DNA of 64,000 nucleotides from Bilabrum cf. latius (GCA_965178125.1 OZ237766.1:186001-250000); one strand, 5' to 3'; shown: positions 10,201 to 49,000, counted from the first letter of the stretch. A program made the numbers and translations. The notes: generated from the sequence alone by a model not told the origin.

Positions 10201-13200
10201 TGACCTGCAGGGGCTTGAGCGTGGGCCGGCGTACGGATCAGCGGGGTCGGGATCGCTTCCCAATTCTTCATCTTTTAGTGGCGTGGGTCTTGTCCGTGGT
10301 ATGGGCATGGGTGCCGTGCAAAGGCAAGGGGTCAGCCTCAGTGGGTCGGACCTAGGACGAAACGCCTGGGGCACCCTCGGCTCTTAGCTGCCGAGCGTAG
10401 TGGAAGAGGTTGCAACCGGCGCTGAGGACCCGCAGCGGGAAGACTCAGCGCAGCCTTCCGGCTCCGGATCCGCGCCTCGTCTCCGGGAGAGATCAAGCTC
10501 AACACCAGGCAGGAGCAGGAGCAGGAGCAGGAGCAGGGCATCCGACAGTGCCAGCACATCCCCCGTCGACAGCGGCTTCGGTTCCCCTGCCACGCTGGCG
10601 GTTGCAACCGATCGTGCGGGAGACGAGGGGGGCACCTCAACGGCCCCCGTTCCCATCCGAGGCGCGGGGGAGCCGGGCAGCCGCCGCAGCAGCCTAACCA
10701 TGGAGCCTCCCAGGGAACAAGGAGGATCCTCAAGGAGCTCTCCTCTGCATGAAGGCCCGCTGCCTCCCGAGGCCATCTCGATGGTGAAGCTCGAGCCGGC
10801 CGTGCCTGCATAGTCTAATCATAATGTTGCAGCGAGGCATGGACAGCTGCCTACCAGTGCTGTGCCCGTCCTGGCAAACTCCAGATCCATCGTCGTACAG
10901 GCGGATGGCGGGAACCAGCAACAGGACGACGATACCGTCGTCATGTCGCTGCCTCCTCCACCCGGGCCTGGGGCCATGTCCAGCAGCTTACCCAGCTCGC
11001 CCGTGTCCGGGCTGCGACAGAGTAGGCATACGAGCCAGTCTAGGTCCAGGCCAGAGTCACCAGTGTAGTCAGCTGATCTGCAGGGAGCTGGCAGGCAGGG
11101 GTAGGGCGACAGCCTGGCTGGCCCAAGCTCAACGGTACTATCCTCAATGCGGGCCCAGAACTAGAGCTAGCAGGGCCAGACGCCATCCCACGTCCAGGGC
11201 AGCCACCAAGCCTCAGAACTGAATACGGTGAAGCTTGCCGCACGGGACGCAGCTGCAGACTCTCTCTCGAGGTCGCATGATCCGAGTGGTGCTGACGCGC
11301 ACTCATCACACCAGTAGGTGCTCCACCCCATGGAGCCGCCCCCCATGACACTCGGCGTGTCAGCCTCCTCTTCTGCCGCATCGTCAACTAGTGGCCACCT
11401 GTCTCAGGATCCCAAGCAGCCGGCAAAACAGCGGCTTCAGCACCAGCCCCCTGTGGGACAGACAGCTTCGCTACATGAACCTGGGCCCGGCAGCACACAG
11501 CCTGCAGCATTTAGTGATCAAAGGACACAACATGCAAGTGCAGCTCCGGCTCCGGCCCAGGGCACGGCTCAGGCTCCGAGCCGACCTGCACATGCAGCCC
11601 ATGCATCGCAGCCAGCCCCCACCCCCAAGCCGGCGCACGGCAGGCTGAACTGGAGGGGCATCAACCCATTCCGTCGCAGGGCAGATTTCGACACGGCCGT
11701 GTCAGGCAACCGTAGCCGCTGGCAGCACATCTTCCCCGCCCTGACGTTTGCTGCGACGGCTGAAGGCTGGGAGGCAGCGGACGCCGCCGGGCCCGCACTC
11801 GCCGCTGCCATGGCTTCTTCCAAGGGGGACGGCTGGGCCAGGCTAAACGAAGCCCTGGAGAGGGGCGAGGGTGACGCGCTGGGCATGCTGGCGGGGGATG
11901 GCGCCGCGCGGACTGCGGAACCGGCTCGGCTGCTCGGTTCGTTCAAGCCGAACTGGCCCGGACTTCTGTAGCCAGCCGTGCTGCCGCTCACCACTGGGTA
12001 CATGCCCACCCCTCAGCAAATCGATTCCGAGTTCGCCATGCACACGTACTCCGTTACGCTACCGAGGAGCATCCTTCGTCTCGAGGACGACGAGGAGATG
12101 GAGGGCGCGGGGGATTGGCAGCGGCTGGGACAGGGAGACGGCCTGCAGGACAGTAGCAGGGCAGGCGTCCCGGCCCCGGTCGCAACCTCGGATCGTGCCT
12201 CCAGGGAACAACAGCGGCTCAGTGGGGCGGTACAGGCGGTGACCGCGTTTCTAGAGATGGTGGGGCAGCGCCTCATGCACGAATACCAGCTCGTCGTTGT
12301 TCCCCAGGGAACACAATCCCCATCCCAAAGTGGTGCTGGCAGCGCGGGGGCTGCTCGTGGCCACCGCGAGAGTGGTGGGACTTGGTCCCAGGGGGAACAC
12401 CTGGCCCAGCGGTCCCGCGGCACAACGGTCCGACAGGCGGTGCTTCGGGAGGTGCGCGTGGCTCTTCAGGCCCTGGGCGTGTCTGGCACTTGGGGCGGGC
12501 TGGGGGCAGGGGCGATGGGCGGGGGGGTGGCCCGGCGGCAGGTGGCCGGCTCGTCGATCCTGGGTGGGATCGATAGCGCGACATTGCGCGGCGCCGGCGG
12601 AGTCGGTTCCGCAGGGTCAGGTCCCGGGGCAGCGGGCCACGACACCGTCACGGTTCGCGCCACCCTGGGAACGTCCATCCACGTGCTGACCCTGGACCTG
12701 GGCCAGGCCACGGTGAGGGTGGCGCTGCACACGCGGGTGGCAAAAGCACGACCAAGCCGGCCAGCGCAGCAGCGGAACGGTGCTTCGGCCGCGGGGCAGC
12801 ATGGAGTATCGAGAGATCTGATTGGCGACGCTTCTGACGCGCGGTCGCAAATATCTGCGACCAGCCGGGACAGGCACTTGCTTCGCCAGGGTGGTCGCAG
12901 GGGCTCCAGCAGCAGCGCTTGGGGAGCGCAGTCTGTGGGGGGCCGCAGCAGCCATGGACCCGGAGCCGATGCAGGCGGCGAGCCTGCCAGGCGGTACGGC
13001 AGGCGCGGGTCCCTGCTGGCAGCGCAGCAGTCACCCGGCAGGTCCACGGTGGTGGACTATGGGCTCTCTGGGCGGGACCAGGACGGTGGCGGCGGCGGCG
13101 GCCGGGAAAGCTCGCAGTCGCTGGTCGTGAGAGGGAGTGTGACGAGTGCGGGGGCTGGGGTAGGTGCCGGTGTGCCCATCCCCAGGCAGGGATCGCAACC

Positions 13201-16200
13201 CGCGGCTGGCGGTATGCTGGCTGGTACAGGCTGTACTAGGGCCCCAAGCAGCAGCGCTAGCCTGGCGTCTGCTGACGGGTCCGTGAGGGCGACAGTGGCT
13301 CCGGGTCCTCTGTCGCCGCCTCTGATCGGATCGGGGCCCGCGATCGGTTCCGCAATCCGCGCGGCACCAGCCACCAGCTGGACCCCCATCGCACGGACTG
13401 GGGTCGGTTCCCTGTCTTCTGCTCGTCGGTCCTCGGGGCTGCTGCCGCCGCCAGGTGTGACGAATGCGGTGTAGGGAGCTGGCACCCCGCCTGGTGTCCT
13501 GCGCCACTCGTCACACCACCGACGGAAGGCATCCAAGGGTCTCGCCAGGAGGTCGCATCTCAGGCTGGGGAGCGGGAGGGCAGGGGGTGGGGCGGCGGCG
13601 GCAGCGGCAGCAGGAGTGGGGGAGGGCGCGGGGGGTGGGCCTGATGGTGGGCAGGCAGGGGATGGCTCGGGGAGGACGTCTCGGTAGAGGAATCGGCCCC
13701 TCTCCCGCCTGCAGCGCGGCGCCGCGCAATCGGCGATGCCTGGTTCCGCTGCGTCCCTGTCTCTCCTCTCGGACCTCCAGGCCGAGACTGAGGCTGCTGA
13801 TGCTGCTGCTGATGGTACTGATGGTACTGCCGCTGCGGGGTCTCCTGCAGCATCAGATGCAGCAACCGCTCGATTGGCGCATGGTTGGGACAGGTCGCCG
13901 CGGTTGGGTGCAATGCACGGCGGTACGCCGGGCGGCACGACCGGTGAAGTGCAAGAGGCCGATTCTTCCATAGCGCTACGACTGCCGCCAGCGCCGCGCA
14001 TCATGAGGTTCCGCGTGTGGTCATCGCAGCGAGGTGCCGCAGTACCCAGCGAGGACGTCGTGGCTGCTTCGCTCAGCGCTCGCGCAGCTCGGGTGAGGCG
14101 GGCTCGACTCCTGGCACTGCAACGGGTGGCGGGCTGGCACACTGTCCGGGATGGGGATGGGGATGGGGATGGGGATGGGGATGGGGATAGGGGTGGGGTT
14201 ATTCTACCTGCGTATGGGAGATGGCCAGCACCAGGCGTGGATGGGGGTGGGCCAGCACCAGGAGTGGAGTAGACTTAGGCTGCAGGCAGTTCTGCTGGTC
14301 CTGCTGCTGTTGCCTCTGATGCTGCTGCTGCTGCCCGCACCTTGGCGCAGACGAAGGGAGCAAGCGCCGCAGGAGGAGGAGCGTCCTCGTCCCTGAGCCT
14401 GGTGTCCTTCGGCTCAACGGACATATCCCCCAGGAGGCCAGGACACGGGAGGCCTCGCGGGACCATCGAAGGTGAAGCGTCCAGCCCGTCGAGGCCGGTG
14501 CACCGCAATTCAATGCGCCCAGATCCGGGCTTGCCTATTGCCCCGCAGCGGCTGCAGGATGACATTGATTGGAATGGGCTCGATTCGATCGTGGGAGGAG
14601 ATACGGGATCGGACGCAGGCTCATCGTCATCCGCCTCGTCGGCGACCAGCACCGCGCTCACCGACTCACTCCGTTACCGCAGGCTCGTACTCGTCACACT
14701 GCTGCGCGACAGCACCATCGAGGACCCCGCCGCCAATGCCAGAGAGCGACTCGACCAGCGGAGCAACGCTCCCAGGGTCAGACACTCGTCACGCGCGGAT
14801 GGGGTGGATCCGCAGCCGGGTGCGCTGGCCATGCAGCGAGACGTTTTTAGCAGCTCGACCGCTCTAGGCCCCGCGCAGTCGTCACACCACATCCCGCCGG
14901 CCTGGTGGCATGATACGTGGACGGCCTACTGCGCGTTTCGCTCGGTTGCGGAATCGGGATCGGCGCCGCGCGTTCCTGATGGGGGCCCGGCTTGGTCTCG
15001 CTGGGGCAGCCGCGTGCTCCCGGGTCCATCCAGCTGCACTGCTTTGCACTGCACACCCATGCAGCGCCCACGCTGGCTGCAGAGCCCCAGCGTATTCGCC
15101 CGGCGCCCCGTAGCGTTGGACGCGGCTTACCAGGCCGTTCGGGGCAGGCAGCACGCCGCCAGGGGGCCAGGGGCGGGGTATGCCTCGTGGCGGCTGAGGG
15201 CGTGGGAGGCAGGGGCGAGGGCGGCGCTTCGTAGGGCGGTTGCAACCGCGTGTGCGATCAGCTGGGTGCTGCTGCCGATTGCGCGGGCCACTGGGCTGCT
15301 AGGACGCGCATCTTCGACCTCGTCTGCGGCTGCTTCGACTTGGAACCCGTCCTCGGCACAGGCAGGTGCAAGCCAGGGGCAGGGGCAGGCGCGTCCGGGA
15401 CCTCTGCAGCCGCAGTAGCAGCCAACCGCTGCAGTCGTCACGCATGCATCCGACGGGCGATCCGTCGCCGGCAGCAGCATCATCACCGCCCACTCCGGGG
15501 CCCTGATTTTTGGCTCCGGGTCCAACTCCAGGCAGGAGGCATCCTCCGTGAGCCGCAGCGGGAGCCGCCGACGGGCGATCTACCTGGTCGTCGATGGCCT
15601 GGTTGTGCTGACGCTGAGCCGATCCATGGCGGACGAGCTCGGGCACGTGTCTTTGAGCGCAGGATCGAATCCCGGTGCACGAGATCCGGACCTGGCACCA
15701 GGATTCTTTTTGGGGCAGGTGCAGCTGAGCCGGGACTCGATCCCGCGCACGGGCTTCGTGTCTCCCCGGGTGGTGACAGTGGGCGCTTCGCTGCGGAGCA
15801 GGGGTTTGGCGAGCGGTTCTGGGCAGGGTACCGGCGGGGCATCGCACTCGTCACACCCTCCATCGTGGGGAGTCGCTTGCTTCAAGCGGGTGCTGCAGCT
15901 GGGGGGACGGGCAGACGTCGTGATTCCGCGGTCCGTGCAAACCGGAACCGCGATGAACATCGAGTTCCGGTGGGTTGCGGCCAGCGCCGAGCCGCTCCGA
16001 AACCTCGTGCACTCGTCACACTAGGGGGCCCGCCGCGGCGGTCTCGCGTGCTGCATCGCCCCCTCGGAGGCCGTGGCCCCTTCCCTTCCCCCATCTGCGT
16101 GGACTCTGGCCCGCACTGCACTGCCGCGCTGGATGAAGAACCGCGATGGCACAAATGCGACCAACGACACCAGCGGCGCCGCGCACTTTGTCCCCCCTTC

Positions 16201-17380
16201 GGTTCCGCTGCCGGACCAGAACGCCTCCTTGAGCGATCTATGGCCCTCCCTGCACCCCCCACTGGCCGTGGGCCCCAGCCACAGGGCCATGAGGACCGAC
16301 GGGGGCTGGCTGTCCACCGTGCCGCCCCACGAAGTGGTGGGCGTGGGTGTACCAGGGTCGTACAGAGGACAGGCGCCGCGCGATTTGGAATAGGCTTCCG
16401 CAATGGCCTGGTATCCCGGGCCGCTCATGCGCGTGGTGCTGGAGGGTGCCATGGTGAGGTTCCGCTTCGCATTCCAGGACGGCGCGGCGCCGCCCCCGGC
16501 CAGGGACACCAGTGTGAATGAATCTTGGAGAACAAGCGCAGCGGTTGCAACCACTCCTCCCCGCCAGGGGGGGGCAGGGTAGAAGATTCCTGACGCTGCA
16601 ACACCAACGTCCGCTCTAGCCCTGTCTCAGGCCGGGACACCCGGCACCCCTGCGTCCTCCTTGACCCCCGCACGGGGTCACCAGCGCGGCAAATCCAGGA
16701 GCCGAAACCAGTCCACGGATCTCCTGACGAGCAGGGTCACTCTTGGCTGGTACCTGCAGCTCGTGCTTACGTCAGATGGGGGCCCGCGGCCAGTCGCAGT
16801 TGCCGATCACGGTGATTTGGACCGAAGGCAAGGGCAAGATCTCGGACTGCCTCGCCCGGTGGGTCCGTGGGGAGACACGGGAGCGCCCAACTCCTTGCCA
16901 CTCGTCACACCCTCGCACTCCTGGCGCACCCCCAAGGTGTCCCGCATGCTCGTCACACCTTCGCGCGTGCGGCCGGCGGCTGGCGCTGCTTTCCTGAGGG
17001 CCAGCCCGCTGGGGCTGCATTGGATCGAGAACCGGTCTCCAGACGTGCTGGGGTATGGCCAGAATGCGTAGCGGTGTTCAGTCATCACAGGTGAAATCGG
17101 CGGGGCGGGTGCCCAGGGACCAGCAGCAGCTCCAGCTCTGGCCCGGGTGGGCAGCACTGGAGGGGGCAGGAATGGTGCTGGAGGGTCGGAGGGAGGCGCG
17201 GCTTCCGATGACGGTCGAATCGCAGTTGCGGCCGGGCGGCAGGAGGCGACTGCGGATGCCGCCGCGGGTGCGATTCGTGCTGCTCTGGGGGAGTTTTCGG
17301 GCGTGTGCTCGCTCTGCTGGGAGGTTGTGCAGGATGCGATGGAGGAGGCAGTGCGTAGGGCGAAAGACAGTAGGGATTGA
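1295..17380 (+). CDS. DEPDC5: GATOR1 subunit DEPDC5/IML1 orthologue; giant (about 5,361 aa), intronless, about 29 in-frame TAG read as sense
   Basis: Track ORFs 1538, 2027, 2312, 3785, 6074 ... 17147 share one frame and are joined only by TAG; ATG at 1295, TGA at 17378-17380. Family motifs in order: NEDLMVHPDVFP; QRYLNREDM; LLVQVSREMW; YEDFY; GNFL*AINL...FEHTGQ...TKLRMMDNGIGCDLVCLSKPPLH; SGNRSRWQHIFP; NWPGLL*PAVLPLTTGYMP; EMVGQRLMHEYQLV; EFRWVAAS. Confidence 0.92.
14147..14188. repeat. (GGGGAT)n coding microsatellite encoding a Gly-Asp run in DEPDC5
   Basis: Directly visible. Confidence 0.9.
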
Positions 17381-23012: not shown

Positions 23013-24041
23013 ATGGCATCAGCTGGATCTGAAAAGTCAAAGGCGGTGCCACTCATGAAGTTCCCGCGCACGCCGCACTTGGCAGACCTCGGAGGCAAGG
23101 CGGTCACAAGAGACGACTTGCTTTTCTCAAAGAAGGATGCCGAGAAGTGGATAGGAGATCACGTCATTACTGTGGAAGAAAAGGTTGACGGGGCCAACCT
23201 GGGCTTCTCCATCTGCCCGGACACGCTCAAGATCATGGTGCAGAACCGCTCCCACTTCGTAAACAGCTCCACCGCGAAGCAGTTCGCTAGGCTCGATGAG
23301 TGGCTGGACAAACACGCCATGGAGCTGCATGCGGTGCTCAAACCCGGCAGGCACGTCCTATTCGGCGAATGGCTCGCCCTCCAGCACTCGGTCCACTACA
23401 CTGCCCTCCCCGACGTGTTCCTGGCCTTTGACGTGTTCGACAAGAAAAAAAGAAGGTTCCTTAGCAAGGCCAGGAGGGATCGACTGCTTGCCAAAACCAC
23501 CGTGCGCGCAGTCAGGTGCATTGCGCGGCGGCGCTTCCCAGGCGGCGTGAAAGAGATCGCCGCACTGTTGGAGGCCACTCCAAGCGGGTACTGCGAGAGA
23601 GAGGGGGGGGAGAGGGGTGTCCCCATGGAGGGGGTCTACCTCCGGAGGGAGTGTGTGACGAGTGATGATGCCGGGAGAGGTGCAGAGACCCGCGCTGATG
23701 GGAGGGCGGCTGATGCATCGCCAGCTTCTGCAGCTGCGGCTGTGAGAGAGGTCGTGCCTGTGGCGCCTGTGGTTGCTGCTGCCAGTAAGGCTGGATCTGG
23801 GACAGGTGCCGGGGCCGCGGCCGGCCCAGGGGCAAGAGCGGGCAAGGCAGAAGCAGATGATAGACAGGGTGGAGACAAAGGCTATGACAGGGAAGACGAG
23901 CCCAGGTGGCTAGAAAGCCGCTGCAAGCTGGTGAGAGCCGAGTTCGTGGCCGGGATCGACGGCCACTGGAGCAAGGGCGTGGCTGTCAAGAACAAGGTGC
24001 TCGTTGGGGAGGACAGGGAATCATGGGGGGACACGGAGTGA
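23013..24041 (+). CDS. ATP-dependent RNA ligase-family nucleotidyltransferase (stand-alone adenylation domain)
   Basis: KFPRTPHL, motif I EEKVDGAN, VQNRS, motif III LFGEW, IIIa FLAFDVFD, IV EGVYLR, V CKLVRAEF...HWSK; ends TGA. Confidence 0.85.
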   Translation: MASAGSEKSKAVPLMKFPRTPHLADLGGKAVTRDDLLFSKKDAEKWIGDHVITVEEKVDGANLGFSICPDTLKIMVQNRSHFVNSSTAKQFARLDEWLDKHAMELHAVLKPGRHVLFGEWLALQHSVHYTALPDVFLAFDVFDKKKRRFLSKARRDRLLAKTTVRAVRCIARRRFPGGVKEIAALLEATPSGYCEREGGERGVPMEGVYLRRECVTSDDAGRGAETRADGRAADASPASAAAAVREVVPVAPVVAAASKAGSGTGAGAAAGPGARAGKAEADDRQGGDKGYDREDEPRWLESRCKLVRAEFVAGIDGHWSKGVAVKNKVLVGEDRESWGDTE

Positions 24042-24166
24042 GAGAGCATTCCTTCAAGGGTGTCATGGAGCAGGAGGTTGCAGCACGCAAAATTGCAATC
24101 GTCACGATTCGGAGCATCGCGCAGAGCACTTTCCGTTGGTTGTCGCCTCGCACGGTTGCGGGCACC

Positions 24167-30592: not shown

Positions 30593-32762
<2,170 letters not shown>

Positions 32763-33183
32763 TTGCGATCACCGTCGATGCTATAGTCTCGTGTGCTTGG
32801 TCTCGTGTGCTCGGTGCGTGATTTCGCCACAGACCACATGCTTTTGGGGGGCCTTCGATTTCGATTGGATGACCCGAGATACCTTTCTGATCGCCAAAAC
32901 TGCTTCATGTTATCCCTCTGCCCTCCTTCAAATGTGGACCCGGGCACCACGGAACCACCGTGACGTCTGCGCGGCGCCGACCCCCCCAAGGCAACACTTG
33001 TTTCATAGGCAGCACACCAAAGGGATCACACATTTGGTACTATTGTTTTGAAGTACCGTTACACTATTGTAGTGGGAACAACTGCTGAAGCCCTTCGAAG
33101 GCGTCACTTAAACCATCGCGCTTGCAAATAAGCTCACAACCAGAACTGCAGCCTTGCCAAAGTCTGCTAGCACGACACCGTGC

Positions 33184-36100
33184 ATGGATCCGAAGCAAAA
33201 CAAAAGCGAGATAGAGATGGACAAGCGCTAGACTGGTGCAGCTGGACTGGTGCAGCTCGCTACCCCGGGTCCACCAAGATCAGACATTGAGATCTTGGAC
33301 GACCACTTTAAGGACATTAAGGCAGAGCTTCAGGACCTTGGTATCCTATCTGGCTCTGAAAACAATTCGAAAGTAGTATCTTTGATTGCTGCAGTGATTC
33401 TTGGCTCGAGGTCTTGGCCGGAGCAGCCTTCCGAGAAGCAGCCCAAGCCCGATTATCTCGGGATACAAAGACCATCCACGGCAATGATCAAAGCAGCCAA
33501 GAAGCTGAGGATGGTATTGGACCCAAGTACGTCGCAATCTAGCAGCGCTGGTTCAAGAACATCGGATCAGCGAGCTGCCCGACCCGACAGAGGCGAAAAC
33601 CCCAGGCGCACCACGAAGCACGATCATCGCAATGGACCCTAGGATAACCAGCCGGCCCAGTCTCCAGACCTGGATCGTGGCCGGTCAAGTGGCAACCGCT
33701 CCGATCCGCGATCCGACTCGATCGAGACGGTCAACGCCGGTCCCACGGGCGAGCAGCAGGTGCACCTCGGAACCAGGGAGTGGTTCATGCGGGTCACAGA
33801 GGCAGCGTCATGCGCCTGCATGTGCGAGCCGGGCAAGGTAAGAAGCAAGGTGTGCTGCGGCTACTGCCGCAGACGACTAGCGCCTTGCTGCGACTGCGTG
33901 CGCACGTGTTGCTGCAACTTCGGGCCAAGATACGCGCTAGGCCACTCCACGGCCATGTACAGCAAGCAGGAGGGGCTGGTTGTGTCCACCAACATGCACT
34001 CGGAGCAGACCAAGATGGTTCTGGGCATCACGTTTGTGCTGTTCGGTCTGATGTGGTTGGTCGTGCTGGTAGTGTCTCTCGTGCTGAGGCTGAGCATACC
34101 GGAGTACAGAGACGCGTAGGGAGAGAACCTGGCTCTGGAACAGAATGTCGTGTACATTTTCGTCCTGTTCTTGACTGATGTCTTCCCGGGCTCTTTTCGG
34201 TACGACACAACAGTCGCGATGGTTGTGTCCATCCTGGTCGTTGTCGCGCAATGCGTGCGGTACGTGCTTCGGAGGTCACCCGACCAGCTGCAGCCCAATA
34301 CCGTATCTGTGTCAGACCGTCTGCTGAGCATCGCGCCCGTAAGTGCCCATCGTTTTTTCGTTTCTTACAAGTGGGAACACCCAAAGGGGTCGCTTGTCGA
34401 GATTCAGGGTGTCAACACAGAATCCCACAATGCAGACGACAGGACCAAGCTGCCAACTGAGATGCTTGGATCACGTGGGCCTGATCCAACGCCAGGACTA
34501 AAGCAGTACCTCAGTTCAACAGCGGGTGCCGAGGGCCTCGCTCGCAGCCTTGCACGTGCCCTCCCCAACGCGTGGGTGGACGTCATGAAGCTGCCCAACG
34601 CCGCATCGCTTCATGCTTCCATCTACACGGACCTGAAAGGGGCCATGTCCACCATCGTGCTGATGACACCTGGATATTTGGGGAGCGTGAACTGCAATTT
34701 CGAGCTGCTGTGTCTCCTGAGGATGCACGCCGATGCTATCAGCAGGGGGGAGCGGTCTCGCCTGACCCAGGCGTCCAGGGTGGTGGTGTACCTCCCTGTG
34801 GATGGGGACATGCCTGGACTTAAGTGGCCAGAGTGGACTGATACGGCTGATATCTGGAAAAAGTACAACCGCGAAAGGATCAAGTCATGCTTGCTAGCGA
34901 TGGGTGTGTCAGTGGTAGAGACTGGCTACGATTTGTTGCGGCACATCCACGACCGCATGTTCATGGGGATACGAGGGGACTTGGTGCAGGCACCAAAGCA
35001 CAGCGCAGATGAATAGGACTCAGACTCAGTGGCGAGCTTGCACGCCTGGTGGAGCACAGCCGGCAGGGTTAGGGCTTCGGCCAAATCGGCCGTGGCTGGG
35101 ACAATCGTGCCTGTTGAAATGCCCGGTGGATATGAAGCTCAATGCTGTGCCCTGTGCCCGGCTACGTTTTCCTGCTCCGGGCGCGCGTGCCCTCCCCCGA
35201 AGGCAACGTATGCTGGCAATTTATGGATCGCCCCTGATGGATCCAGCCGGGGCCGCATGCACCGGGTGGCGCCCGGGCTGTGGTTCATAGTGTCGATCAC
35301 TGCGACGCTCTTGTACGGGGTAGTTCACATTGTTTGGGAGGACAGGAAGCTGAATGTCGGGTGGTTGAATGGGATTGACCCGCCGCTGCTTGGCACGGCG
35401 TTAGTGCTGTTGATCATGTCGTGGCTCCTTGCTGACGGAGCTGCTGACCTCAATTGGAGGTACCAGCACAGCCCGTGCATGAACAAGATCTTGCTGGCAG
35501 GGCAGCTGCAGCACGGTTCCAAGAAAGGCTCCTCTAGCTCTAAAGTCTCAGGAGTTGAGAGCTGGGGCGAGAGCAAATCGACAAGGCAAATTACTGGTAG
35601 TGAGGGGACTATTGCTCGGATCCAGGCCTCGCACGAGTATGTGGGTCACCACGTTCGCTACAAACTCAGGTTTGCCTTCATGATGGGTGGTGCAGATGAG
35701 GCAAGCATCCTAGTGGAGAAGGATACGAGAGAGAAGGAGATGAATGCAAAGCAGACATCTGGCAAGGCCGGCGGCAAGTCAGCCTCCGTCCCTTCCAGAC
35801 AGCAGTCTACAGAGCTTCCTATGACGACGGAGCAGGCCATGTCCATTGTGCGGCCTGCTGCAGCTGTAAATACCTGCATGATGCTGCGCGAGCTCGACTT
35901 CTAGGCGATGGAGTACACGTTCCACCCTGGGTCCCGCAATTGGATTCGAAACAGAACGTCTGCCGGGAGCGATACGGATGATATTGATGACGAGCAAGGT
36001 GGTGCAGGCCAGGCATCGCTCGCTCGCTCATCTGTAAGGCGTAGTGGTGACCTAGACCATTCCACCCAGTCTCCACTGGCCCTTCTGAGCCGCGACAACG

Positions 36101-36840
36101 AAGCGACCGGCGGCTCACACAACGGTGGTGCGGCAAGTGCTGCACTTGCCTCCATCAACCATGCCGCCAGCAGCGGCTCGGTTCAAGACGGTGCCCCGGG
36201 AGAGTCACCGGCCGCCCAGTCACCCCGCGCCGTGTTTGCCCACCAATCCGGAGGCGGAGGCGGGATCGGGCAGATCCGTCGCCTCGACACTTCAGCAGCG
36301 TTTGTGGATGCCGTACGTGACGAGGCGGATATTAAGCCTGGTGTGATATACTGCTTCGTGATCTCCACAGTGGCTCAGGCGGAGGCATATCTTGACTTCA
36401 TCTACGGCAGGGATAAAGCGCAGATCGTGCTGATGGTGCACAGCTCGGTGCCGCGCGAAGTTAACAGGATATACGATGCACTCTACGTGGGATACGATAC
36501 CGACAAACGGAGCGACCAGGAAAAACTGCCGCAGGACAGCGTTAAGTCTTGCATTTCGTACATGTGCTGGAGGTTCGGTCCATCTGTATGCTATAGCCAG
36601 TGCCCCTCCTGCTGCCCGTCTTGCTTCTGCGGGTGCTGCTGCTGGCTGGGCATGTGCTGTGGCTTCTGCGGCTACTCGCGGGACAGCGAGTTCAAATCGG
36701 AGGATAGGTGCTGCAATGGCAGGTGGCGTTGCTGCGGAGGGCTGCCTAGTTCGCGTGTTCCCCCCCAAAATCAGGATTTGGCGCAGAATCTGCTCGAGGC
36801 TCTATCGTCCAAGGTGGCGAGTGCCCTGCATCCGGGCTGA
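33184..36840 (+). CDS. Multi-pass membrane protein with TIR domain and Cys-rich segments, copy 1 (about 1,218 aa, 5 in-frame TAG)
   Basis: One frame with TAG at 33229, 33640, 34117, 35014 and 35902; ends TGA. About 3 hydrophobic helices precede FFVSYKW...LARSLARAL...WVDV...IVLMTPGYLGSVNCNFEL (TIR_2-like); two more helices follow. Confidence 0.8.
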
Positions 36841-37722: not shown

Positions 37723-37996
37723 GTATTTCTCCATCACCGGACCGGTGACAACGGCAAATCCACTCACTTCACAGATAACCTGGGTTGCGCATTGATCACA
37801 GCCTATTCGAAACATTGTGTAGTTTTTGCTACTATCTGGATCAAAGTACTCGAGAGTCACTGCCGTGGTTGCCCCGGGGCCTCACTGCAAAATCGGTATT
37901 TACGAAGCCGGCGTAACAAGCGAGCTTCTACCATTGCAGTGTAGATTATTTTACGATTCTATGCTTGAAATCGATTTAGACTAAGGAAAGAACAGT

Positions 37997-40900
37997 ATGG
38001 TCTCGCGCTTAGCTGGAACGGCTAGACAGGTGCAACTAAACACGGGTGGTACTACTGAAAAGGCGATCCTGAGCACTTTTTTCGAGAACACCTAGAAGGA
38101 GCTGATCGGACTCAAAGTTCTTGAACGAATGGGTTCGAAGGAATTGATCGTTGCAATGATGCTTGGTTCAAGATCTTGGCCGCAAGACAAATTCAAAGTA
38201 GGCCCTGCTCTCACTCCAATTGCTCAGAATGGGACAAGTGTACAGTAGACCGCAATGCACGAAGCAGCTGAGAAATTGAATGACGTGTTGAGAACAGAAG
38301 ACTCTGCTCATAGAAAGGATGCGTCCACAGCCTCAGACAAGCAAGACACGAGCTCGACGAAGGGATACGACCCCAACGAATCCAACAAAAATCAGCCGAG
38401 CAAATCTCCATGCCATGCACCGTAGATGGAGAACGCATCTTCTTCAGAGCGCCAGCATGCGAACGACTTCGTCGAACACGGCCACTCCAGTCGCAACCGC
38501 TCGGACCCAAGAGCCGACTCGATCGAGACCGTCAACGCCGGCCCCACGGGCGAGCAGCAGGTACACCTCGGAACCAGGGAGTGGTTCATGCGGGTCACAG
38601 AGGCAGCGTCATGCGCCTGCATGTGCGAGCCGGGCAAGGAAGGAAGCAAGGTATGCTGCGGGTAGTTGCGAAGGTGCCTCGCCCCGACATGCGACTGCGT
38701 GCGCACTTGTTGCTGCAACTGCGGGCCAAGATACGCGCTAGGCCACTCCACGGCCATGTACAGCAAGCAGGAAGGGCTGGTTGTGTCCACCAACATGCAC
38801 TCGGAGCAGACCAAGATGGTTCTGGGCATCACGTTTGTGCTCTTTGCCTTACTCTGGCTGGCTGCACTCGTGGTGTCTCTCGTGCTGAGGCTCACCGTCT
38901 CGGAGTACAGAGACGCGGCGGGCGACGGCCTAGCTCTGAACCAAAACGTGGTGTATATCCTAGTTCTTCTCGTCGCAGAGACATTTCCGGGCTCTTTTCG
39001 GTACGACACCACAGTCGCGATGGTTGTGTCCATCCTGGTTTTTATCGCGCAATGCGTGCGATACATGCTCATGAGGTCATACGACCAGCTGCAGCCCACC
39101 ACAGTATCCGTATCAGACCGATATCTGGGAATTGCGCCAGTGACAGCTCATCGCTTCTTTGTGTCCTATAAGTGGGGGCATCCAAGCAGTAGGAGCAAGC
39201 TGCGGAATGCCAATCGCAGCTCCACGGCAGGTGCCGAGGGCCTCGCTCGCAGCCTGGTACGGGCCCTCCCCAACGCGTGGGTGGACGTCATGAAGCTGCC
39301 CAACGCCGCATCGCTTCACGCTTCCATCTACACGGACCTGAAAGGGGCCATGTCCACCATCGTGCTGATGACTCCTGGATATTTGGGGAGCGTGAACTGC
39401 TTGTTCGAATTCTTGTGCCTCCTGAGGATGCACGCCGATGCCATCAACAGAGGGGAGCGGTCTCGCCTGACCCAGGCGTCCAGGGTGGTGGTGTACCTCC
39501 CTGTGGATGGGGACATGCCTGGACTCAAGTGGCCTGAATGGACTGATACGGCTGATATCTGCAAAAAGTACAACCGCGAAAGGATCAAGTCATGCTTGCT
39601 AGCGATGGGTGTGTCTGTGGTAGAGACTGGCTACGATTTGTTGCGTCACATCCACGACCGCATGTTCATGGGGATGCGAGGTGCCTTGATGCAGGCACGG
39701 GCTCCAGTGCAAGACTGGGGAGGGGCGGGAGGCAATACCAAAGAACACTCAGACCCAGGGGGTCCTCTTATGCACGATGCAGATGAATAGGACTCAGACT
39801 CAGTGGCGAGCTTGCACGCCTGGTGGAGCACAGCCGGCAGGGTCAGGGCTTCGGCCAAATCGGCCGTGGCTGGGACAATCGTGCCTGTTGAAATACCCTT
39901 AAATATTGCAGATTCCACTCAGGGTTGCTGCAGCCCGTGCCTGGCCGCATTCTCCTGCTCCGGGCATGTGTGCCCCCCGCCCAGGGCAATCTACGCTGGA
40001 AATCTTTGGATCGCCTGGGACGGGTCGAGTTCGGGCAAAATTTGCCGTGTGGCGCCCGGGCTGTGGTTTCTGGTGACGATCGCAGCGACGCTTGCGTACG
40101 GAGTAGCTCACATTGTTTGGGAGGACAGGAAGCTGAATGTCGGGTGGTTGAATGGGATTGATCCGCCGCTGCTTGGCACGGCGTTAGTGCTGTTGATCAT
40201 GTCGTGGCTCCTTGCTGACGGAGCTGCTGACCTCAATTGGAGGTACCAGCACAGCCCGTGCATGAACAAGATCTTGCTGGCAAGGTAGCTGCAGCCCGCA
40301 TACAAGATCAAGTCGACTAGCTCTGAGGTCCCTACAGTGGCTAGCCAAGGTGGTAATACACCTGAAGAGCATGGTAACGGCGCCGACGAGCCCGTCGCTC
40401 GTCACCACCACCTCAGGTTTGCATTCATGATGGGGGGCAGCTGTGAAACAGCAGAGTCAATCGTGTAGAACGACGTGAATAGGAAGCAACGGAGGAGGGA
40501 GAGTGAAAGGATGCCGAATACGTGGGCGAACGCCAAGCTGTCACCAGACAAAGCCGCTGGCAAGTCAACGTGTGCCGCAGCTGTATCGGAGCATGCAGAG
40601 CCACAAGTTTTGAAAGACGATGCTAAGGCTATTGTGCGTCCTAACGCCGTCGTTAATGTGTGTCAAATGCTTCGCGAGCTTGAGTTCGAGACACATGAGT
40701 ACCACTTTGACCTCGAGGACTCGAGCTGGAAGGAGAAAAGCGGCGCACACTAGAAAGCAGGCCAAACGTCGCCGAAAAAAATTCCATGCGGTCCCCTCTG
40801 CATGACCAAGGTGTTCGAGGTTTGAGGTCGATTAACGGTGGTAGCGGCGGTGGTGCGGCAGGTGCATCCGGATCGCCTTACTCTGTCCCCTTACTATCAG

Positions 40901-41506
40901 CCTCAATCAATGACGTTAACAGCGGCAAGCAAGACGGTGTCCCAGGGGAACCACTAGTCGCTGTATCGCCACAAAATACTAGTACTGGAAGTAGTTCTGA
41001 GGAGCCCCGGAAGGGCGCTTCGCGGTCTTCGGTAAACTTTGTGAAGAACGGAAAGGATCTCAAGCCCGGTATGATCTACTGTTTTGTGATCTCCACCGTG
41101 GCCCAGGCGAAGGCGTACTTGAAATCAATCTACGGATAGGACAACGCGCAGGTCGTGCTGTTGGTACACAATGAGGTGGCCGAGGAGTTGAATGTGCTGT
41201 TCGACGTCCTTCACGTGGGATACAAGACGGATAGGCGGAGTGAAGCAGAGAAGCGGCCACACCGTTGCTTTTATGCTTTCACCTAGTATATGTGCTGGCG
41301 CTTTGGTCCATCTGTGTGCTACACCCAGTGCCCATCATGCTGCCCTTCGTGTTTCTGCGGGTGCTGCTGCAAGTGCTGCAGTAGCAGGTGCTGTTGCAGT
41401 TGCGTATCGTGCAAGGCAGGTGCCCCCCCCCCAAAATCAGGATTTGGCGCAGAATCTGCTCGAGGCTCTATCGTCCAAGGTGGCGAGTGCCCTGCATCCG
41501 GGCTAA
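37997..41506 (+). CDS. Transmembrane TIR protein, copy 2 (tandem paralogue); two apparent frameshifts at homopolymers
   Basis: Collinear with copy 1, with many in-frame TAG. The frame changes near the A-run at 40775-40781 and again at the C-run at 41423-41432. Ends ALHPG-TAA where copy 1 ends ALHPG-TGA. Confidence 0.75.
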
Positions 41507-41605
41507 ACGCGGCCCCGTGTTGCATCATATTTGCCTGTCCGGCTTACTTGCTTGCTGACCTTAGGTTGCCTAGAAGGATCCGGTTGCGGGTGATCCATGC
41601 CAGGA

Positions 41606-41656
41606 TGGTGGGCTGGTGAAGAAGCAGTCGTTCGGGGTGAAGCCCAGTGGTTCCGC
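41606..41656 (-). repeat. 51-bp dispersed repeat, inverted relative to 50158-50208
   Basis: 47/51 identity by manual alignment. Confidence 0.85.
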
Positions 41657-42601
41657 GGGGCCGGGGGCAGTAATTTTTATATGGAGAAGTAGTGATGAGG
41701 TTCGAATTTAAACTGACCAAGCTTGAATGAATGAGCTCTCCAGTGGACTCTCCACGACACCCAAGGTGGAGGTATCTTGCACGCATCTAGAATGAATAGC
41801 GCGCGTTGAATGCCCGTGGCCTTCCACGATGAATCGTCGATATTCTCCACCAGCATGGGACACTTGTTCTTTTGCCTCATTACCGCCACCTTTCATGCCT
41901 GCAAAGCGTTGTTCCTTGCGGAGGGGCATAGGTTGCTGGCAGCCTTCGTGGCAGGCTCGGTAGCGGCAGGTTAAGTGATCCCAGTGGAGCCACGTATGCG
42001 GCTACCACCGCAGTATTCGTCATCATTTCGACCTTGCATGCCACCGTTATTGGTTCGGTAGATATGTACGTATACGTGAGGCCAACGCGGGTGCAGCCGC
42101 CCGTTGGTGACCCACGCAGCTATTCCCGCCCGTGTCCAATTCGCCGGGCGTGCAGTTTAATATCGAGTCAATCACAATGAGCGTCCCCGGGGTCCGTTCT
42201 TGATCGCTTCGTTGCTCGTAGGCTCGGCGTCAGCTCTCTCATTCACGGTGCTACACAGTACACTGTGGCAAGGTTGTGGCGTCCTCGTCTACGTACCGAT
42301 CCGGATCGACATATCGCTTTGCATGTCAGTTGTCACTGAGATAGTAGATGAATGACCTCCCAGGAAACCTAATGACACGATGGGCCCCTGCCCAGGCATC
42401 TAAATCCAGTCGTGGTTTAGCCCCTCGGCAGTTGTCCCCTTTCATCCAGGCCCAGGCCGCCTTACCAGCAGCGAAATGCGCAGCACAAAGACGGTTCTAA
42501 ATCTCGTTAGCGGCAAAAGTATGCTTGGAGTTATCACTTTGGCTTGCCGATTCAGTACAGATAGAATAGGCCTACTTCTTGTTTGACGAGAAGGAGATCC
42601 A

Positions 42602-45600
42602 ATGCAGCACCCAATCCACTGGCGGGTTGACGACCCACCTCGCGAATCCTACCCCAATCTGGTTCCAGTAAACATGGCATACAGTGCATGTAAAATAGAT
42701 GTATGTACTGGAGGCCGCGAAAGCATTCCTTTTGATGATTACGTTTGGCAATCGAGAATCCAAGCCCTACCACGGAGAATCCAGGCAGCGACGTCACTAC
42801 CCATTGATTTCCTGACGGAAAGGCAATTGTTGAGCTCAAATAGAGCCTACGGTGACAATTGTAGAAGTTGTGCAGCTGCGATCTGTGCCATAAACCTTAC
42901 TGCGGGACAGCTTGACGAAAGCGGGTTGCGTGGCGTGTCCTCCACAGTCGAGAGGCTTCAAGCACAAGATGCTTTCTTCATGAATTTTGCCCTCCTCATT
43001 AGTATGGGAGCCAGTTACACTGAGTGCTTGCTTCTGCCACAGCTCGAAGCTGACCTCGCCGAGGCTTCGATTGAACGAAACTCAATCGTAGTGCAACGCA
43101 TTCTACGGGATCACTACAATAAGTAGTCACATGACGGCAGTGTATCTGATGATGAGCCAAGTAAATGTTCACTTTGGAAAGGTCTTGTTCCGGCAACTGG
43201 ACCGACCGGAGAACGTAGCATCGTTGCACTGGCTGCTGCCATGGGCAGCGAGCGGATTCTGGAAGAGGCGATGGACCATGCTGCGGATGTAGACTGCGCG
43301 TTAGACTATGAGACCAGAATTCACACTGTGAGGCCAGTAGGCGCCAGATCGCTCGCTTCCAAGCGTCGAGCGATGGCAGCCATTGAGCGAAAGGCGCGTG
43401 CAGTGCTCCACGAGGCAGGTGCAGGAACAGCAGCAGAAGTTTCAGAGCAGAACTGCAGAGCAGGAGCAGGAGCAGGCGCAGAGCAGGCAGCAAGTGCTGC
43501 ATAGACGCCGGGTGCAGTTCCAGTCAATATCAGCGCGTTGCCGGAGGCTGCACACGCGGCCTTGGCTTCCCAAGAGAGTAGGTCTAGCAAGCACCGGGCG
43601 TCGCCAGTGTATCAACCCACGCAGTACACCGAAGCTCAGGCCACTTCAATGAAGTAGGCTGGGCCTCCTTCCAGTCCTCTTGTTCTCGCCGTGCGCAGCG
43701 GTTGCATGGGCTCAGTTGGAGCCATTCAGGACCAGTGGCCCATCGATCTGGATTCCCCTTGGAATGCGCTCGACGAGGCGGCATGGCATGGGGACAAGTC
43801 ACTGTTCAATTGTCTTCTCATGCGATATGAGCACAAGGTGGATATCCTCTTTCGCAAGTCGGGAATGGGCTCGCAGCACAGGCCGTCATGGTTCTCGCCC
43901 CTTGTGCATGCCGCCAATCGAGGGCAACACCAGGTCGTGTTTGTCATCACTGATCTTCTGTTGGACGAATATGCCAGGTGCAGCAGTAGCCTGTCACACT
44001 GCCAGGTAGGGGAGGAGGGAGTTCGCTAGATTCTAGGAATGGCAATCGCTGGTGCCATACGGAACGCGCGGGTCGCCGCATTGCAAATGCTCCTCTCTGC
44101 GACATCCCGCCTGTCAATCGACTGCATAATCGACGGACACATCTCCACGGACACAATCAGCAGCAGATCGCCCTTCATGCTATCGCCCCAAGGCCATTGG
44201 GGCCTGGCAGGGTGCAGTCGATTGGACGCTGCCTGCTGCACAGGCACCGTCCAAGTCCTGCTTGAGAGCGGACACGAGCGGATGTGCGACAGGATCGTGC
44301 AGCTGCTCGCCATGCAAAGGATGCACGGTGCACTGCAAGCGCTCGCGGGGGATGGCCGCATTGCCCATGTCGTCATCCAACAAGCAGCGAGGTGGTGGGC
44401 GCAGCTTGACGGAGATTACAGCGACCCAGACATGGATTTCTACGAAGATATGTAGGCCGGGGTGCAGATGTGCTGGTCCAAGTTCCTGGCAATGGGTATC
44501 GTGGAGGTCATGGTCGGTACTGCATCCTTACCCAGTCACGTGCTGACCAAGCATGCCGGTGAGTTGCGCCCCAAGGAGGCCATCGTGTTGCTCCTGAACA
44601 ATTTCATGTAGTTTGGACCTACCAAGCTGCTCATCGGAAACAGAGCCAGCGAGACGCATGCTGCCCAGAGAGACGAGTACGGCCGCCCCGTGCCTTTGGC
44701 GTACAATGGCGCCACAAGGGCCGAGCAGGACGGGTACTTTGCATGGTATATGGCCGATCGAGTGGAACGACTCATGCGGCATCCACTTAGCCTTAACGAT
44801 GCAGACCATGCTGGCGCTGGTACCGGTCCTGGTCCTGGAGCTGGAGCTGGAGCAGGAGCTGGAGCTGGAGCTACTGGTGGTGAGCCTTCATGTGCTCGCG
44901 AACTAGGAGATGATGAGGAATCGGACCCTTGCCTACTTGGAGATGTGTATGGCGAGGATGAATCCTTGCTGGAGCTTCTGACTGGGCAATACGAAGCTGC
45001 AGCTGTCCTTGCCGGCGAGCAGCGTGACGGAGACACGGGTGTCGTGACCTTGTCTGCGATCGATGAAGAGGTGCCCGGGGAACAAGACGAGCCGTTCGAT
45101 GATTTCGATGCAAGAATGCTCCAAGCACTGTTGATGAAGCCTTGTGGAGGTCTGAGCGCAAAGAACCTCTGGGCTGTGCCTGTGTTGCATGCCCTGCTGA
45201 GGGGCGGCTGGTGTCCGTTCAGCTGCAGCGAAGCCAAGAGACACCGGTTGGCCCAGACAGTGGCTCCACTGCTGCAGTCGCCCGGAATGGGGAGATACCC
45301 ATGGTTTAGGGCGCTGCTCTGCATGATGCTGTCGCTTGGATGGCCGTTGTATCGATCTGTAGATACTGAAGGTATCCCAACGCTCTGGGACAGCTACAGC
45401 TGGAATCCAGCAAAGCGGGCGGCACTCAGTACTGCGACTTAGCGCGGCGCTTGGCGCGACGTAGGACGGATCCTAGGCGACAATGAGGCCGTTGAGCTGC
45501 TTCGGCGGAAGGCAGGTACTACCAGCCGGCCAAGGCAGAGTGCTATGGTGCTGTGGATGGAGGCCAAGCGAGCCAAAGACGCGACCGAGCAGGTCTGGCG

Positions 45601-45958
45601 CACTGCACTGGGGTGGCAGCCGCTCCGGCTCGGCCGATTCCTCAGTGGTGGCACGCGGGGCTCGTGCATGGCAGTCCGTGGGGTGCTTCCACCAAGCGGG
45701 CCTGAGAAGCCAGACGCCGCACCCACAGAGGGGGACCCTGACGGCGTTCCCCCCAGGGATGGCTGCACGCTGCTCATGGCAGCTGCTTTCAGTGGATGCG
45801 AGGACTCGGTGCGGGTACTGCTTGAGGCTGGTGCGAGCCCCAGTGCAGTCGATGATTTGGGTCGAAACGCTCTCTGGTGGGCCTCGGCGAGTACAGGGAA
45901 TAGGAAGGGCTCAGCTGGGGCTGGGTCTGCCTCAATCATCAGAGAGTACTTGCAGTAA
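42602..45958 (+). CDS. Ankyrin-repeat protein (about 1,118 aa, 7 in-frame TAG, ends TAA)
   Basis: Track ORFs 42602, 43241, 43691, 44039, 44690 and 45545 are in one frame joined by TAG. Ankyrin-like NALDEAAWHG, SPLVHAANRGQ, DGCTLLMAAAFSGCEDSVRVLLEAGASPSAVDDLGRNALWWA. Start uncertain. Confidence 0.78.
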
Positions 45959-46087: not shown

Positions 46088-49000
46088 TCAGCTAAGCGGC
46101 CGCCCGACACGCACCGCAGCTTGGTACATTTCCAATGCGCTGGCCGGCTTGCCCAGCACGCCATCCAGCCCAGCAGCCTTGAAAGACTCCAGGTCCGAAC
46201 CCAGAGCATCCCCCGTCAGGCCGAGGATCAAGAACCTCGACCCGTGCTCGGCTCGGATGGCCCGCGTTGCTTCGATGCCGTCCATCACTGGCATGGACTT
46301 GTCCATCGTGATCAGCCCCAACGGGGCAAGATCCCCTCGTGTTGCACTGCCATGCACTGCACCCGCATCCACCGCAGCCGCTCGCGCCCTCGCAGCCTAC
46401 ACAGCTTCCTTTCCGTCCGCAGCCAGCTCCGTGTCGAACCCGATCCTGCGCATGCCCCTGGCGAGCAGCTTCCTGTTGGTGGATACGTCGTCAACAACGA
46501 GGCACCAGCCTGGTCCGGAGCCGCCGCCTGACTTGCCGCCTGTACCACGACCCCTCGTCGTGGAAGCCTTGGTTGTGCCCTTCTCCATTTTCTTCTTCTT
46601 CTTCACAACCCGCCTGCGGGTCTTGCCCTCGGGCTTTCCTGCGATAGCACCCGCCCCTGCACGTGTCCCAGAAACTGCCCTACCGCTGGAATCTCCCGAT
46701 GACTTAAGCCCGGACTAGTTGTTGCATATAGCAGCCGCGGTGCCACCCGAGTCCGTCAGGATTACAACCGGCTCGGCCTACGTACCCGGCGTTGGTTCAA
46801 CAGCACTGTCACCTCCTACGCCAGCCCCCGCCACTAGAACGCTCTCGACCTCCTTGCCATTGGCTGCCTTGTCATCCCAGTACGCATGCTCCTGCTCGTT
46901 GGGACCTGACCCGCTAGCAAGTTCAACCGAGCCTGTTGCTCGGAGCATTCTCCTGAGATCGGTGGCGACTCGTGTTACAGCTTCTGATTCGGTATGCTCA
47001 ATCTCACCCCCTGTGCTCGTTGTATTGTCGCCATCATCATCATCCGAGTCGGTAGTGCGACCACCCATTGTGTTAGTCAGCTCCGATCGAAATGAGGCAC
47101 CATCCGACACGCTGCTGGGCTTCCACCTCCTCGACATCGTCGAGTCGCCTGCCAGCATGGCCCCAGTCTCGCCACCAACGCGCCGATCGCCATCACCCCC
47201 ACCCAGCCTGCCAGCCATCGCCTGAAAGGTGAACGTAAACACGCTGCCCTTGCCCTCTCCCTCGCTCGATGCCACCAGATCGCCCCCCATCTGTCGAGCG
47301 ATCCCGCGCGAGATGTACAGGCCCAGACCGGAGGAAGAGCCCGTGTACGCCACGCCGTGCCTGGCCTGCTTGTAGGGCATGAAGAGCCCATTGATGTCTT
47401 CACTCGTCATCCCACAGCCAGTGTCGCGAACAGCCATCGCGATCACAACGCTAGTAGGCATGTCATTTGATTCCTTTCCCTCGGCAGTTCTCGTCGATTC
47501 AGACGAGCTTGCGGTCTCCAAGTACGCGGTACCATCGGAGCCTGCCCCCCTCCCGATCGATCCTACCCCGTGCTGTTCCGTACCAGGCCGCATGACTGGC
47601 AATTCAACATGACCGGCGCCTTCGGTACGGCTATCTATCCCGTGGCTCGCTCCATCCATGCCCACACCCTCACTGGCCCAAGTCTCCACCATGATCGTGC
47701 CGCCCGCCGGCGTGAACTTGATCGCATTCGACACCAGGTTGGCGAGCACCTGCTTGATCCTGACCCCGTCACCCACGACCCGACGGGGCACGCTGCCCTT
47801 GTTCACAGCCGATAGCTTCACCCTCTTGGCCCAGGCACTCCTCCGGAACACCGTCCTGATGTCTCGTAGCAGGCCACTCGGACTCACCGTGTCTTGCCGC
47901 AGCTTGAGCCTGCCCTGCTCGATGCGCTGTGCCTCTAGCACGTCGTCGAAAATGTGCTGCAGTCCCTTGCACCCTTCCTTCTGTGAATTTAATACGTCCA
48001 CACCTTCCTCTAAGTTGCGGTACATGTCCTCCACCAGCTGGCTCAAGGGATGCTACATGCTGGGTGCCCTTCCAATGGCAGGCGACATGGGAGCCGCACC
48101 GCCCTCTCCATCAGCCTGCTGTTCCTCCTGCAACTACTCCTGCTACTGCGCGCCCTCAGTGCCCTAGCGCCCTGCCGTCCCGTCTTTAGCACCATCGTCT
48201 TCGATGCGCACCCCGCCGACTCTCCTCCTCAGCTGGATAGATTGTTCCCTGACCTCCTGCAGCGTGATGCCAAGCTCGTCCACAGCCAAGGACACGGCCT
48301 AAAGGGGCACCCGGGCCTCGTGGAAGATGTACCTGGTGAACTGCTGGATGGTCTGCAGGCGGGCCGTGGTGGCCTTACGCCTCCACTCCTACGCCTCGGC
48401 TGCCTGCTTTGCCACGGCGGTCACGTCCGCCCTCACGATGACGAGGGCGAGCGTGCACCTCAGAACGACCAACATCATGTCAGTCGCAGCGGCGGCAGCG
48501 GCTGCATCCTCGTCTTTGACGCCAAGAGGGCCCGTTGCAATGAATTCGATGATAAATGATGCGGTGAAAGCAATGTATACCAGCGCCATCCAGTGCACCA
48601 AAGAGATGCTGGTGCACCTGCAGTCGTGCTGGCTCTCGTCACAGACGTCCTGCTCGCTTCCCAAGTACGGGTGCTGCGCCCCTCCCAGGATCGTATCGGG
48701 TATGTCAGCGGATAGCTGTCTGTCCTCTGATAGCATGGGAGCGCTCTTCATGCGCTCTGGTGCTTCACCACGCGCATCTGAGCCAGCCCGAGCGGCCCGG
48801 GGGTGTGTGCTGGCTCCCGACTTGCTCACCCCGTGCCTGCTCAACGAATTGACCTATACGGTGTCTTGCAGTGGCGTCACGCTCGCGTCCTTTGCATGGA
48901 CTGCACGATCATGGCTTGAACAGCACCACTGTACATCAAATCGAGCTGGGACCGAACAGCTTTCTGTGTCCCGGTTGGGATGTCTTCTGTCCATGCTGAA

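Follow-up and report, generated by a model that had tools for sequence, protein, structure and literature searches.

The question raised by this locus is what the codon TAG stands for. The locus is a stretch of 64,000 nucleotides from the genome of Bilabrum cf. latius (GCA_965178125.1 OZ237766.1:186001-250000). The whole stretch (64 kb, G+C ~60%) is called the window here, and positions are counted from its first letter. Many open reading frames (ORFs) of the window contain TAG in frame. From sequence comparison, the organism probably reads UAG as glutamine (Gln), with UAA and UGA remaining stops, and the probability of this reading is put at about 0.88. A preliminary description, made from the window alone, had ranked Gln over glutamate (Glu) and had stated that the window alone could not settle the residue. 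The latter was correct, i.e., the internal evidence was ambiguous and sequences from outside the window were decisive. The ranking was supported by the columns of a protein family, given below.

With the standard stops, the longest ORF in the window was 912 codons. When TAG was read through, ORFs of 5367, 1420, 1342, 1242, 1159, 1123, 1037, 946, and 935 codons were obtained. Ten long ORFs (526-5367 codons; 15,030 codons together) contained 98 TAG in frame and no TAA or TGA (0 each). The other two reading frames of these ORFs gave 109 and 110 TAG, 32 and 47 TAA, and 261 and 279 TGA. TAG was about as frequent in frame as out of frame, i.e., UAG was not depleted. Seven of the ten ORFs were terminated by TGA and three by TAA, and in a read-through test of TAA the ORFs gained few codons only. 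These in-frame and out-of-frame counts, together with the ORF ends, identify TAG as an ordinary in-frame sense codon, with TAA and TGA kept as stops. With UAG as Gln, the code pattern is that of NCBI table 15. The TAGs were located within the IML1, HisKA/HATPase_c, and receiver domains, and made up 98 of the 663 TAG, CAG, and CAA codons (15%). The TAG at 49414 was removed from the count because it lies inside a 92-nt GT..AG intron seen in spliced contigs.

It may be asked whether these TAGs are translated at all, i.e., whether they are intronic and spliced out, changed to CAG by mRNA editing, or signs of pseudogenes. TAG 49414 does sit in an intron, and introns exist in some genes of the window, e.g., those of the S10 carboxypeptidase and the ubiquitin-conjugating enzyme (E2). 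Against this, TAGs were found within ungapped conserved blocks, e.g., a 25-residue H-box block of a histidine kinase, and the lack of TAA and TGA in the 15,030 codons means that these are not decayed genes. Transcript-like contigs of public runs were also compared with the kinase gene, and 0 differences were found over 46453-49735, with short uncovered gaps. The contig pieces listed contain about half of the in-frame TAGs of this interval, and the RNA nature of the runs is a guess. The identity of contigs and genome, with the splice junction, speaks against editing and against introns at the kinase TAGs. Non-translation is therefore extremely unlikely. Across 44000-63999, the contigs of four public runs matched the window without a difference, in pieces of 0.2-2.5 kb. 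Because the run contigs showed no variation, strain polymorphism at TAG sites was not usable.

Conserved positions of a histidine kinase family

The window encodes a hybrid histidine kinase. An exhaustive search with this kinase gave 150 homologues, and the closest database homologue, P0004, showed 54% identity. By a scan of metagenome contigs with the kinase alignment, 12 loci (L001-L012) were found, which carry paralogues of the window kinase. The gene and three of its TAG sites are as follows.

46088..49366, minus strand: hybrid histidine kinase (HATPase_c and receiver domain), 11 in-frame TAGs; from Pfam, spliced contigs, and the 150 homologues
48389..48391, minus strand: TAG in AEA(TAG)EWRRKA; family column 100, Gln in 5/5 others with a residue, TAG in L007; Q in P0004
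48299..48301, minus strand: TAG in the H-box HEARVPL(TAG)AVSLAVDEL; family column 130, Gln (CAG/CAA) in 7/7; Q in P0004
46397..46399, minus strand: receiver-domain TAG in DGKEAV(TAG)AARARA; family column variable (A, A, E, E, D, D)

The open frame as given to Pfam was 46088-49567 (minus strand), and the 92-nt intron, 49367-49458, lies upstream of the 46088..49366 part.

The metagenome loci had a G+C of 0.53-0.60 and 2-14 in-frame TAG each, and no TAA or TGA was found in frame over up to 1475 codons. TAG in frame without TAA or TGA shows that a related organism uses the same recoding, i.e., an environmental relative shares it. The relative has at least eight distinct paralogues of the hybrid histidine kinase, all TAG-recoded. 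Its contigs also carry Rpn3, DGAT, phosphatidylserine synthase (PSS), ICMT, and GH16 genes with in-frame TAG.

For the family test, duplicates were merged, i.e., L003 with L004, L009 with L008, L012 with L002, and L011 with L010, and a duplicate filled only the gaps of its partner. The alignment comprised nine unique genes. A column was taken as conserved when at least five other members agreed at 80% or more. The conserved columns held 1964 cells, of which 10 were TAG. Eight of these ten were at Gln columns (seven distinct columns, other members having CAG/CAA), and none was at a Glu column (0/81 cells). The remaining two were at one Ala column and one Val column, both in poorly aligned tails. 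TAG was also absent from the conserved columns of Leu (0/252 cells), Ser (0/96), Lys (0/51), Tyr (0/35), and Trp (0/14).

The 89 cells of the Gln columns consisted of 78 Gln codons, 8 TAG, and 3 other residues. TAG outnumbered all replacements together and made up 8/86 (9%) of Gln codons and TAG. This pattern is expected if the change of CAG to TAG is synonymous. By Fisher test, the presence of TAG at Gln columns had a p of 5.4e-10 against all other columns and of 0.0048 against Glu columns. At conserved protein columns, TAG stands in for CAG/CAA and not for GAG/GAA.

Two of the eight Gln-column cells, nt 48391 and 48301, are TAGs of the window itself. In the comparison with P0004, which has Q at both, the two TAGs lie in the dimerisation/H-box region, within the 25-residue identical block. 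The VPL(TAG)A of the H-box had been proposed earlier as a Gln-type site, and all seven family members bear this out. Among distant matches, N was found at site 48301 in 10-11. The TAG of L006 in PYK(TAG)ARHG was placed in a column with Q in 148/155 distant kinases.

Weighing glutamine against other residues

ICMT, PSS, and Rpn3 genes with TAG were taken from the flanks of the metagenome loci. In ICMT (48 homologues), the column of TAG183 was Q in 30/47, and that of TAG173 was Q in 18, H in 14, and T in 12 of 48. TAG243 of PSS corresponded to Q in human PSS2 and A in PSS1 (solved structures), and a third TAG was aligned with R. The ICMT and PSS columns thus lend further support to Gln, as do those of the distant kinases. 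The Rpn3 TAGs were aligned with K, Y, H, and E of human PSMD3 and were uninformative.

Profile log-odds were summed over the 34 TAG columns having at least five aligned residues. The sums, in nats, were +4.7 for Gln, -16.6 for Ala, -23.1 for Lys, -30.2 for Ser, and -31.6 for Glu. The top residue was Q in 8 columns, E in 5, G in 4, A, D, and S in 3 each, K and L in 2 each, and N, T, R, and F in 1 each. In controls from the same alignments, true Gln codons had Q on top in 36% and E in 10%, and true Glu codons had E on top in 68%; these control columns are not independent, i.e., family members were used as queries in turn. TAG positions were less conserved than the average Gln codon. The preliminary description had named conserved TAG columns dominated by Glu or another residue as the contrary outcome, and over the 34 columns Gln was first.

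Within the window, runs of Gln codons, single motifs, and tandem paralogues had been brought forward as evidence. All quoted codon strings and coordinates were present and in frame. The runs are CAG AAC TAG AGC TAG CAG GGC CAG, Gln-rich, at 11156..11179 (plus strand); CCG CAG TAG CAG at 15410..15421 (plus strand, TAG at 15416); and CAG TAG CAG GAG TAG TTG CAG at 48128..48148 (minus strand, TAGs at 48145 and 48136), the last in a Gln/Glu-rich linker. Gln was counted in 24/396 neighbours of TAG (±1, ±2), with 14.9 expected (1.61-fold, binomial p=0.016). Gln beside Gln codons was 1.52-fold enriched, on a par with Gln beside TAG. The Gln enrichment adjoining TAG is real yet modest. A neighbour-context classifier gave 0.0 nats for Gln and -0.9 for Glu, and this classifier is weak, recovering true Gln in 14/40 and true Glu in 3/40.

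The motifs RLSVAA(TAG) (28435, minus strand), LVWRG(TAG)PL (25745), VPL(TAG)A (48301, minus strand), and GNFL(TAG)AINL (3773) were all found in frame. The ORFs of the first two and the tandem paralogues are listed here.

23888..27916, plus strand: ORF of 1342 codons, 7 TAGs including that of LVWRG(TAG)PL at 25745; no family found
28073..30880, minus strand: ORF of 935 codons, 8 TAGs including that of RLSVAA(TAG) at 28433-28435
33112..36840, plus strand: paralogue A, membrane protein with a weak TIR_2 match, 5 TAGs
37985..41616, plus strand: paralogue B, 8 TAGs up to 40825 and 2 further TAGs in the continuation ORF 40711-41616

The labels "CRE element", "RLSVALQ motif", and "Ubl", which had been attached to the first two ORFs, were not confirmed, i.e., Pfam gave no match for either ORF at E<=0.01. 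In a PDB search, ORF 28073-30880 had chance-level matches only (best E 0.13), and the CRE label was again not confirmed.

Between the paralogues, the TAG at 40286 stands opposite CAG at 35503, as had been reported. The two pairs with GAG were also recovered, i.e., TAG 40466 with GAG 35716 and TAG 35902 with GAG 40688. Overall, the partners of TAG were CAG in one pair, GAG in two, and TAC, GCG, and TAG in one each, and several further pairs were poorly aligned. The TAGs of the continuation ORF were opposite R and S in an alignment read by eye.

Several findings weigh against Gln. Six of the eight decisive cells of the kinase family come from the relative and not from the window's own organism. 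At TAG 46399, Glu is the commonest residue of the distant matches (59/176), and the closest match, P0062, has E. The TAG at position 101 of L010b, in a second receiver domain of the relative, is in a column with E in 57 and Q in 18 of 125. ICMT TAG251 is in a Phe column (42/46), which fits neither Gln nor Glu, and PSS TAG367 corresponds to E in human PSS2 (M in PSS1). The Q-minus-E margin of the TAG columns, +36.3 nats, falls short of that of true Gln codons in resampling (5-95% range, 48-97); it is also far from that of true Glu codons (-78 to -45). Lastly, in an IML1/DEPDC5-like protein, both of the TAGs located in conserved blocks are aligned with Glu. The gene and the sites are as follows.

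1277..17380, plus strand: IML1/DEPDC5-like, 5367 codons, 29 TAGs, TGA end; Pfam PF12257 (E 6.8e-61) and PDB DEPDC5 matches
3773..3775, plus strand: TAG in GNFL(TAG)AINL; Glu in human DEPDC5 and in 3/3 homologues
11969..11971, plus strand: TAG in NWPGLL(TAG)PAVLPLTT; E in the closer homologues P0001 and P0002 (2/2), T in human

The DEPDC5 columns were drawn from three database homologues (P0001-P0003; word-based searches gave 1 and 2) and the human protein. The alignment of GNFL(TAG)AINL with Glu, noted in the preliminary description, is real but weak. Five DEPDC5 columns are all Glu in the aligned homologues; the residues of the window there are T, E, Q, and M, with TAG at the fifth, so all-Glu columns are poorly kept in the window protein. 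The Glu-aligned TAGs are real counter-evidence, and in DEPDC5 this is weak, the protein being very divergent. Exchange of Gln and Glu is common.

The DEPDC5 sites support UAG as Glu, which would be decoded by a tRNA-Glu(CUA). The receiver-domain columns, the two GAG pairs of the paralogues, the neighbour-context score just 0.9 nats under Gln, and the five of 34 TAG columns with Glu on top also fit Glu. There is a precedent as well, UAG being Glu in one uncultured ciliate according to excerpts of PMC11687900. Against it, TAG was found in 0/81 cells of the conserved kinase Glu columns and in 8/89 cells of the Gln columns, and the summed log-odds of Glu are 36 nats under those of Gln. Glu was on top in 15% of TAG columns, compared with 68% for true Glu codons, and the all-Glu columns of DEPDC5 are poorly kept in the window protein, as described. 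Glu would also need seven separate Gln-to-Glu replacements at invariant positions of the H-box and ATP-binding domain. It is reasonable to consider Glu quite unlikely.

Decoding as Leu, Ser, Tyr, Lys, Trp, or Ala, or ambiguous decoding, is very unlikely, and less credible than Glu. UAG as Leu and UAG as Ser are known in other eukaryotes (excerpts of PMC11687900), one TAG/TAC pair was seen between the paralogues, lone TAG cells were at Ala, Val, and Phe columns, and the lower conservation of TAG columns compared with typical Gln columns would agree with such decoding. However, no TAG was found in the conserved Leu, Ser, Tyr, Lys, and Trp cells of the kinase family, the Ala and Val cells sit in poorly aligned tails, and the log-odds of every other residue were at least 21 nats below Gln.

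Decoding and known reassignments

For UAG as Gln, a mechanism can be proposed in which a tRNA-Gln with anticodon CUA, one base from tRNA-Gln(CUG), would decode UAG. Recognition of UAG by eRF1 would be lost or weakened. Transitions of CAG to TAG would then become synonymous and may have spread TAG to ~15% of Gln positions. UAA would stay a stop because tRNA(CUA) would not read it. The tRNA-Gln(CUA) and eRF1 steps are modeled on other UAG reassignments, as described in excerpts of PMC11687900. In the search for tRNA genes, none was found in the window and none in the 12 metagenome loci.

Reassignment of UAG alone to Gln in nuclei is listed for Iotanema spirale (a fornicate), Protocruzia tuzeti, and two phyllopharyngean ciliate lineages in the excerpted parts of PMC11687900, and is also treated in an excerpt of PMC5304391. 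The window resembles these in the reading of UAG as Gln with UAA kept as a stop, and in the replacement of CAG/CAA by TAG at conserved Gln columns. Its host is different, being a GC-rich (~60%) eukaryote with spliceosomal introns, and with CD36, DEPDC5, and an expanded set of hybrid histidine kinases among its genes. The window genes give no indication of a ciliate or a fornicate. In a protein atlas, the S10 carboxypeptidase exon was placed no more closely than Eukaryota, with Streptophyta/Oomycota commonest.

Other codes are more distant. Ulvophycean green algae, Hexamita, Streblomastix, Amoeboaphelidium, and many ciliates read UAR (UAA and UAG) as Gln (PMC11687900, in part). The likeness is the change of a stop to Gln, presumably via a mutated tRNA-Gln. 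In contrast to these codes of the table 6 type, TAA was found in frame at 0/15,030 codons and ended 3/10 ORFs here, i.e., only UAG is reassigned. UAG was described as Ser in Scotinosphaera, Leu in an uncultured rhizarian, and Glu in an uncultured ciliate (PMC11687900, in part). In these codes UAG is likewise uncoupled from UAA, whereas here no TAG was present at conserved Ser, Leu, or Glu columns. The crAss-like phages use a code with TAG as Gln (PMC9523058, in part). The codon table is alike (TAG for Gln, TAA and TGA as stops), but theirs is a bacterial phage system and the window belongs to a nuclear eukaryotic genome with introns.

Nuclear reassignments of UAG alone are few, i.e., one fornicate, one rhizarian, one green-algal genus, and some ciliates, as far as the excerpts of PMC11687900 show. 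In a literature search, no GC-rich non-ciliate eukaryote with UAG as Gln was found besides Iotanema, which is not proof of absence. The code itself is known, and the host lineage is probably new. A further proposal is tentative, with the chances slightly against it, i.e., that the window organism and the relative of L001-L012 form a lineage, neither ciliate nor fornicate and undescribed as recoded, in which UAG came to mean Gln independently while UAA and UGA were kept. If true, the separation of UAG from UAA, a rare event, would have arisen independently once more, in a GC-rich genome with UAG not depleted. A further GC-rich case would be useful for testing the ways in which UAG may be released from its link with UAA, and whether the codon must first become rare.

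The reading of TAG has a practical meaning for annotation. When this genome or related metagenome contigs are annotated with the standard code, proteins are truncated at each TAG. Database proteins from the contigs of L001-L012 were fragments cut at TAG. The first residue of P0062 is a V that corresponds to kinase residue 1034, in the receiver domain, and P0006 begins directly behind an in-frame TAG of L002. These fragments show that such truncation has already happened. With TAG as Gln, the proteome of this organism would be translatable correctly.

Other genes in the window

The other TAG-containing ORFs of the window are listed here.

42587..45958, plus strand: ankyrin-repeat ORF of 1123 codons, 7 TAGs, TAA end (Pfam)
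51395..54508, plus strand: CD36-family ORF, 1 TAG (Pfam)
55250..56830, minus strand: DDE_1 (pogo-like) transposase ORF, 5 TAGs, TAA end (Pfam)
59737..63999, minus strand: ORF of 1420 codons running off the window, 17 TAGs; no family found

In the PDB search, no match was found for ORF 59737-63999, nor for the C-terminal third of the DEPDC5-like ORF.

Two genes of the window lack TAG. An ORF with an RNA-ligase domain (PF09414, E 1.6e-27), 22656-24038 on the plus strand, has zero TAG in 461 codons, and at its 3' end it overlaps with the first part of the open frame 23888-27916. A serine carboxypeptidase S10 gene at 31070-32759 (plus strand) was found as three ORF pieces in different frames, and its exons are without TAG. 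Because the pieces sit in different frames, this gene has introns. An ORF of 680 codons with 7 TAGs at 30983-33025 (minus strand) was rejected as a gene, being antisense to the S10 carboxypeptidase exons.

The public-run contigs skip 49367-49458, 58188-58301, and 58410-58505, and each of these stretches is GT..AG on the gene strand (minus). They look like spliceosomal introns of the kinase gene (92 nt) and the E2 gene (114 and 96 nt), the latter recognised as a ubiquitin-conjugating enzyme fragment.

The tandem paralogues, 33112-36840 and 37985-41616 (plus strand), encode large membrane proteins that are nearly identical to each other over long blocks. Both carry Cys-rich segments, i.e., CCGxCRRxLAPxCDCVRTCCCN and the C-terminal CPSCCPSCFCGCCC. 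The TIR_2 match is weak (E 0.006, below the Pfam cut-off), and copy B changes frame after 40825.

At 44667-45333 and 50003-50669, the summed contig depth was many-fold over that of the adjoining bins in all four runs (up to 942 and 839). Both stretches had numerous contigs with partial matches and many loose ends, and the one at 44.8 kb codes for a Gly/Ala run. They are probably repeated or low-complexity DNA.

The transposase ORF overlaps an upstream ORF of 375 codons (56505-57629, 5 TAGs) in another frame. The whole region, 55250-57629 (minus strand), is either a single transposase gene with a frameshift or an intron, or a decayed copy.

In the CD36-family gene (51400-54300, plus strand), besides identical contigs, others were found that differ by ~3-13% with small indels (e.g., 25/812 bases). 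These divergent contigs point to close paralogues or a second haplotype.

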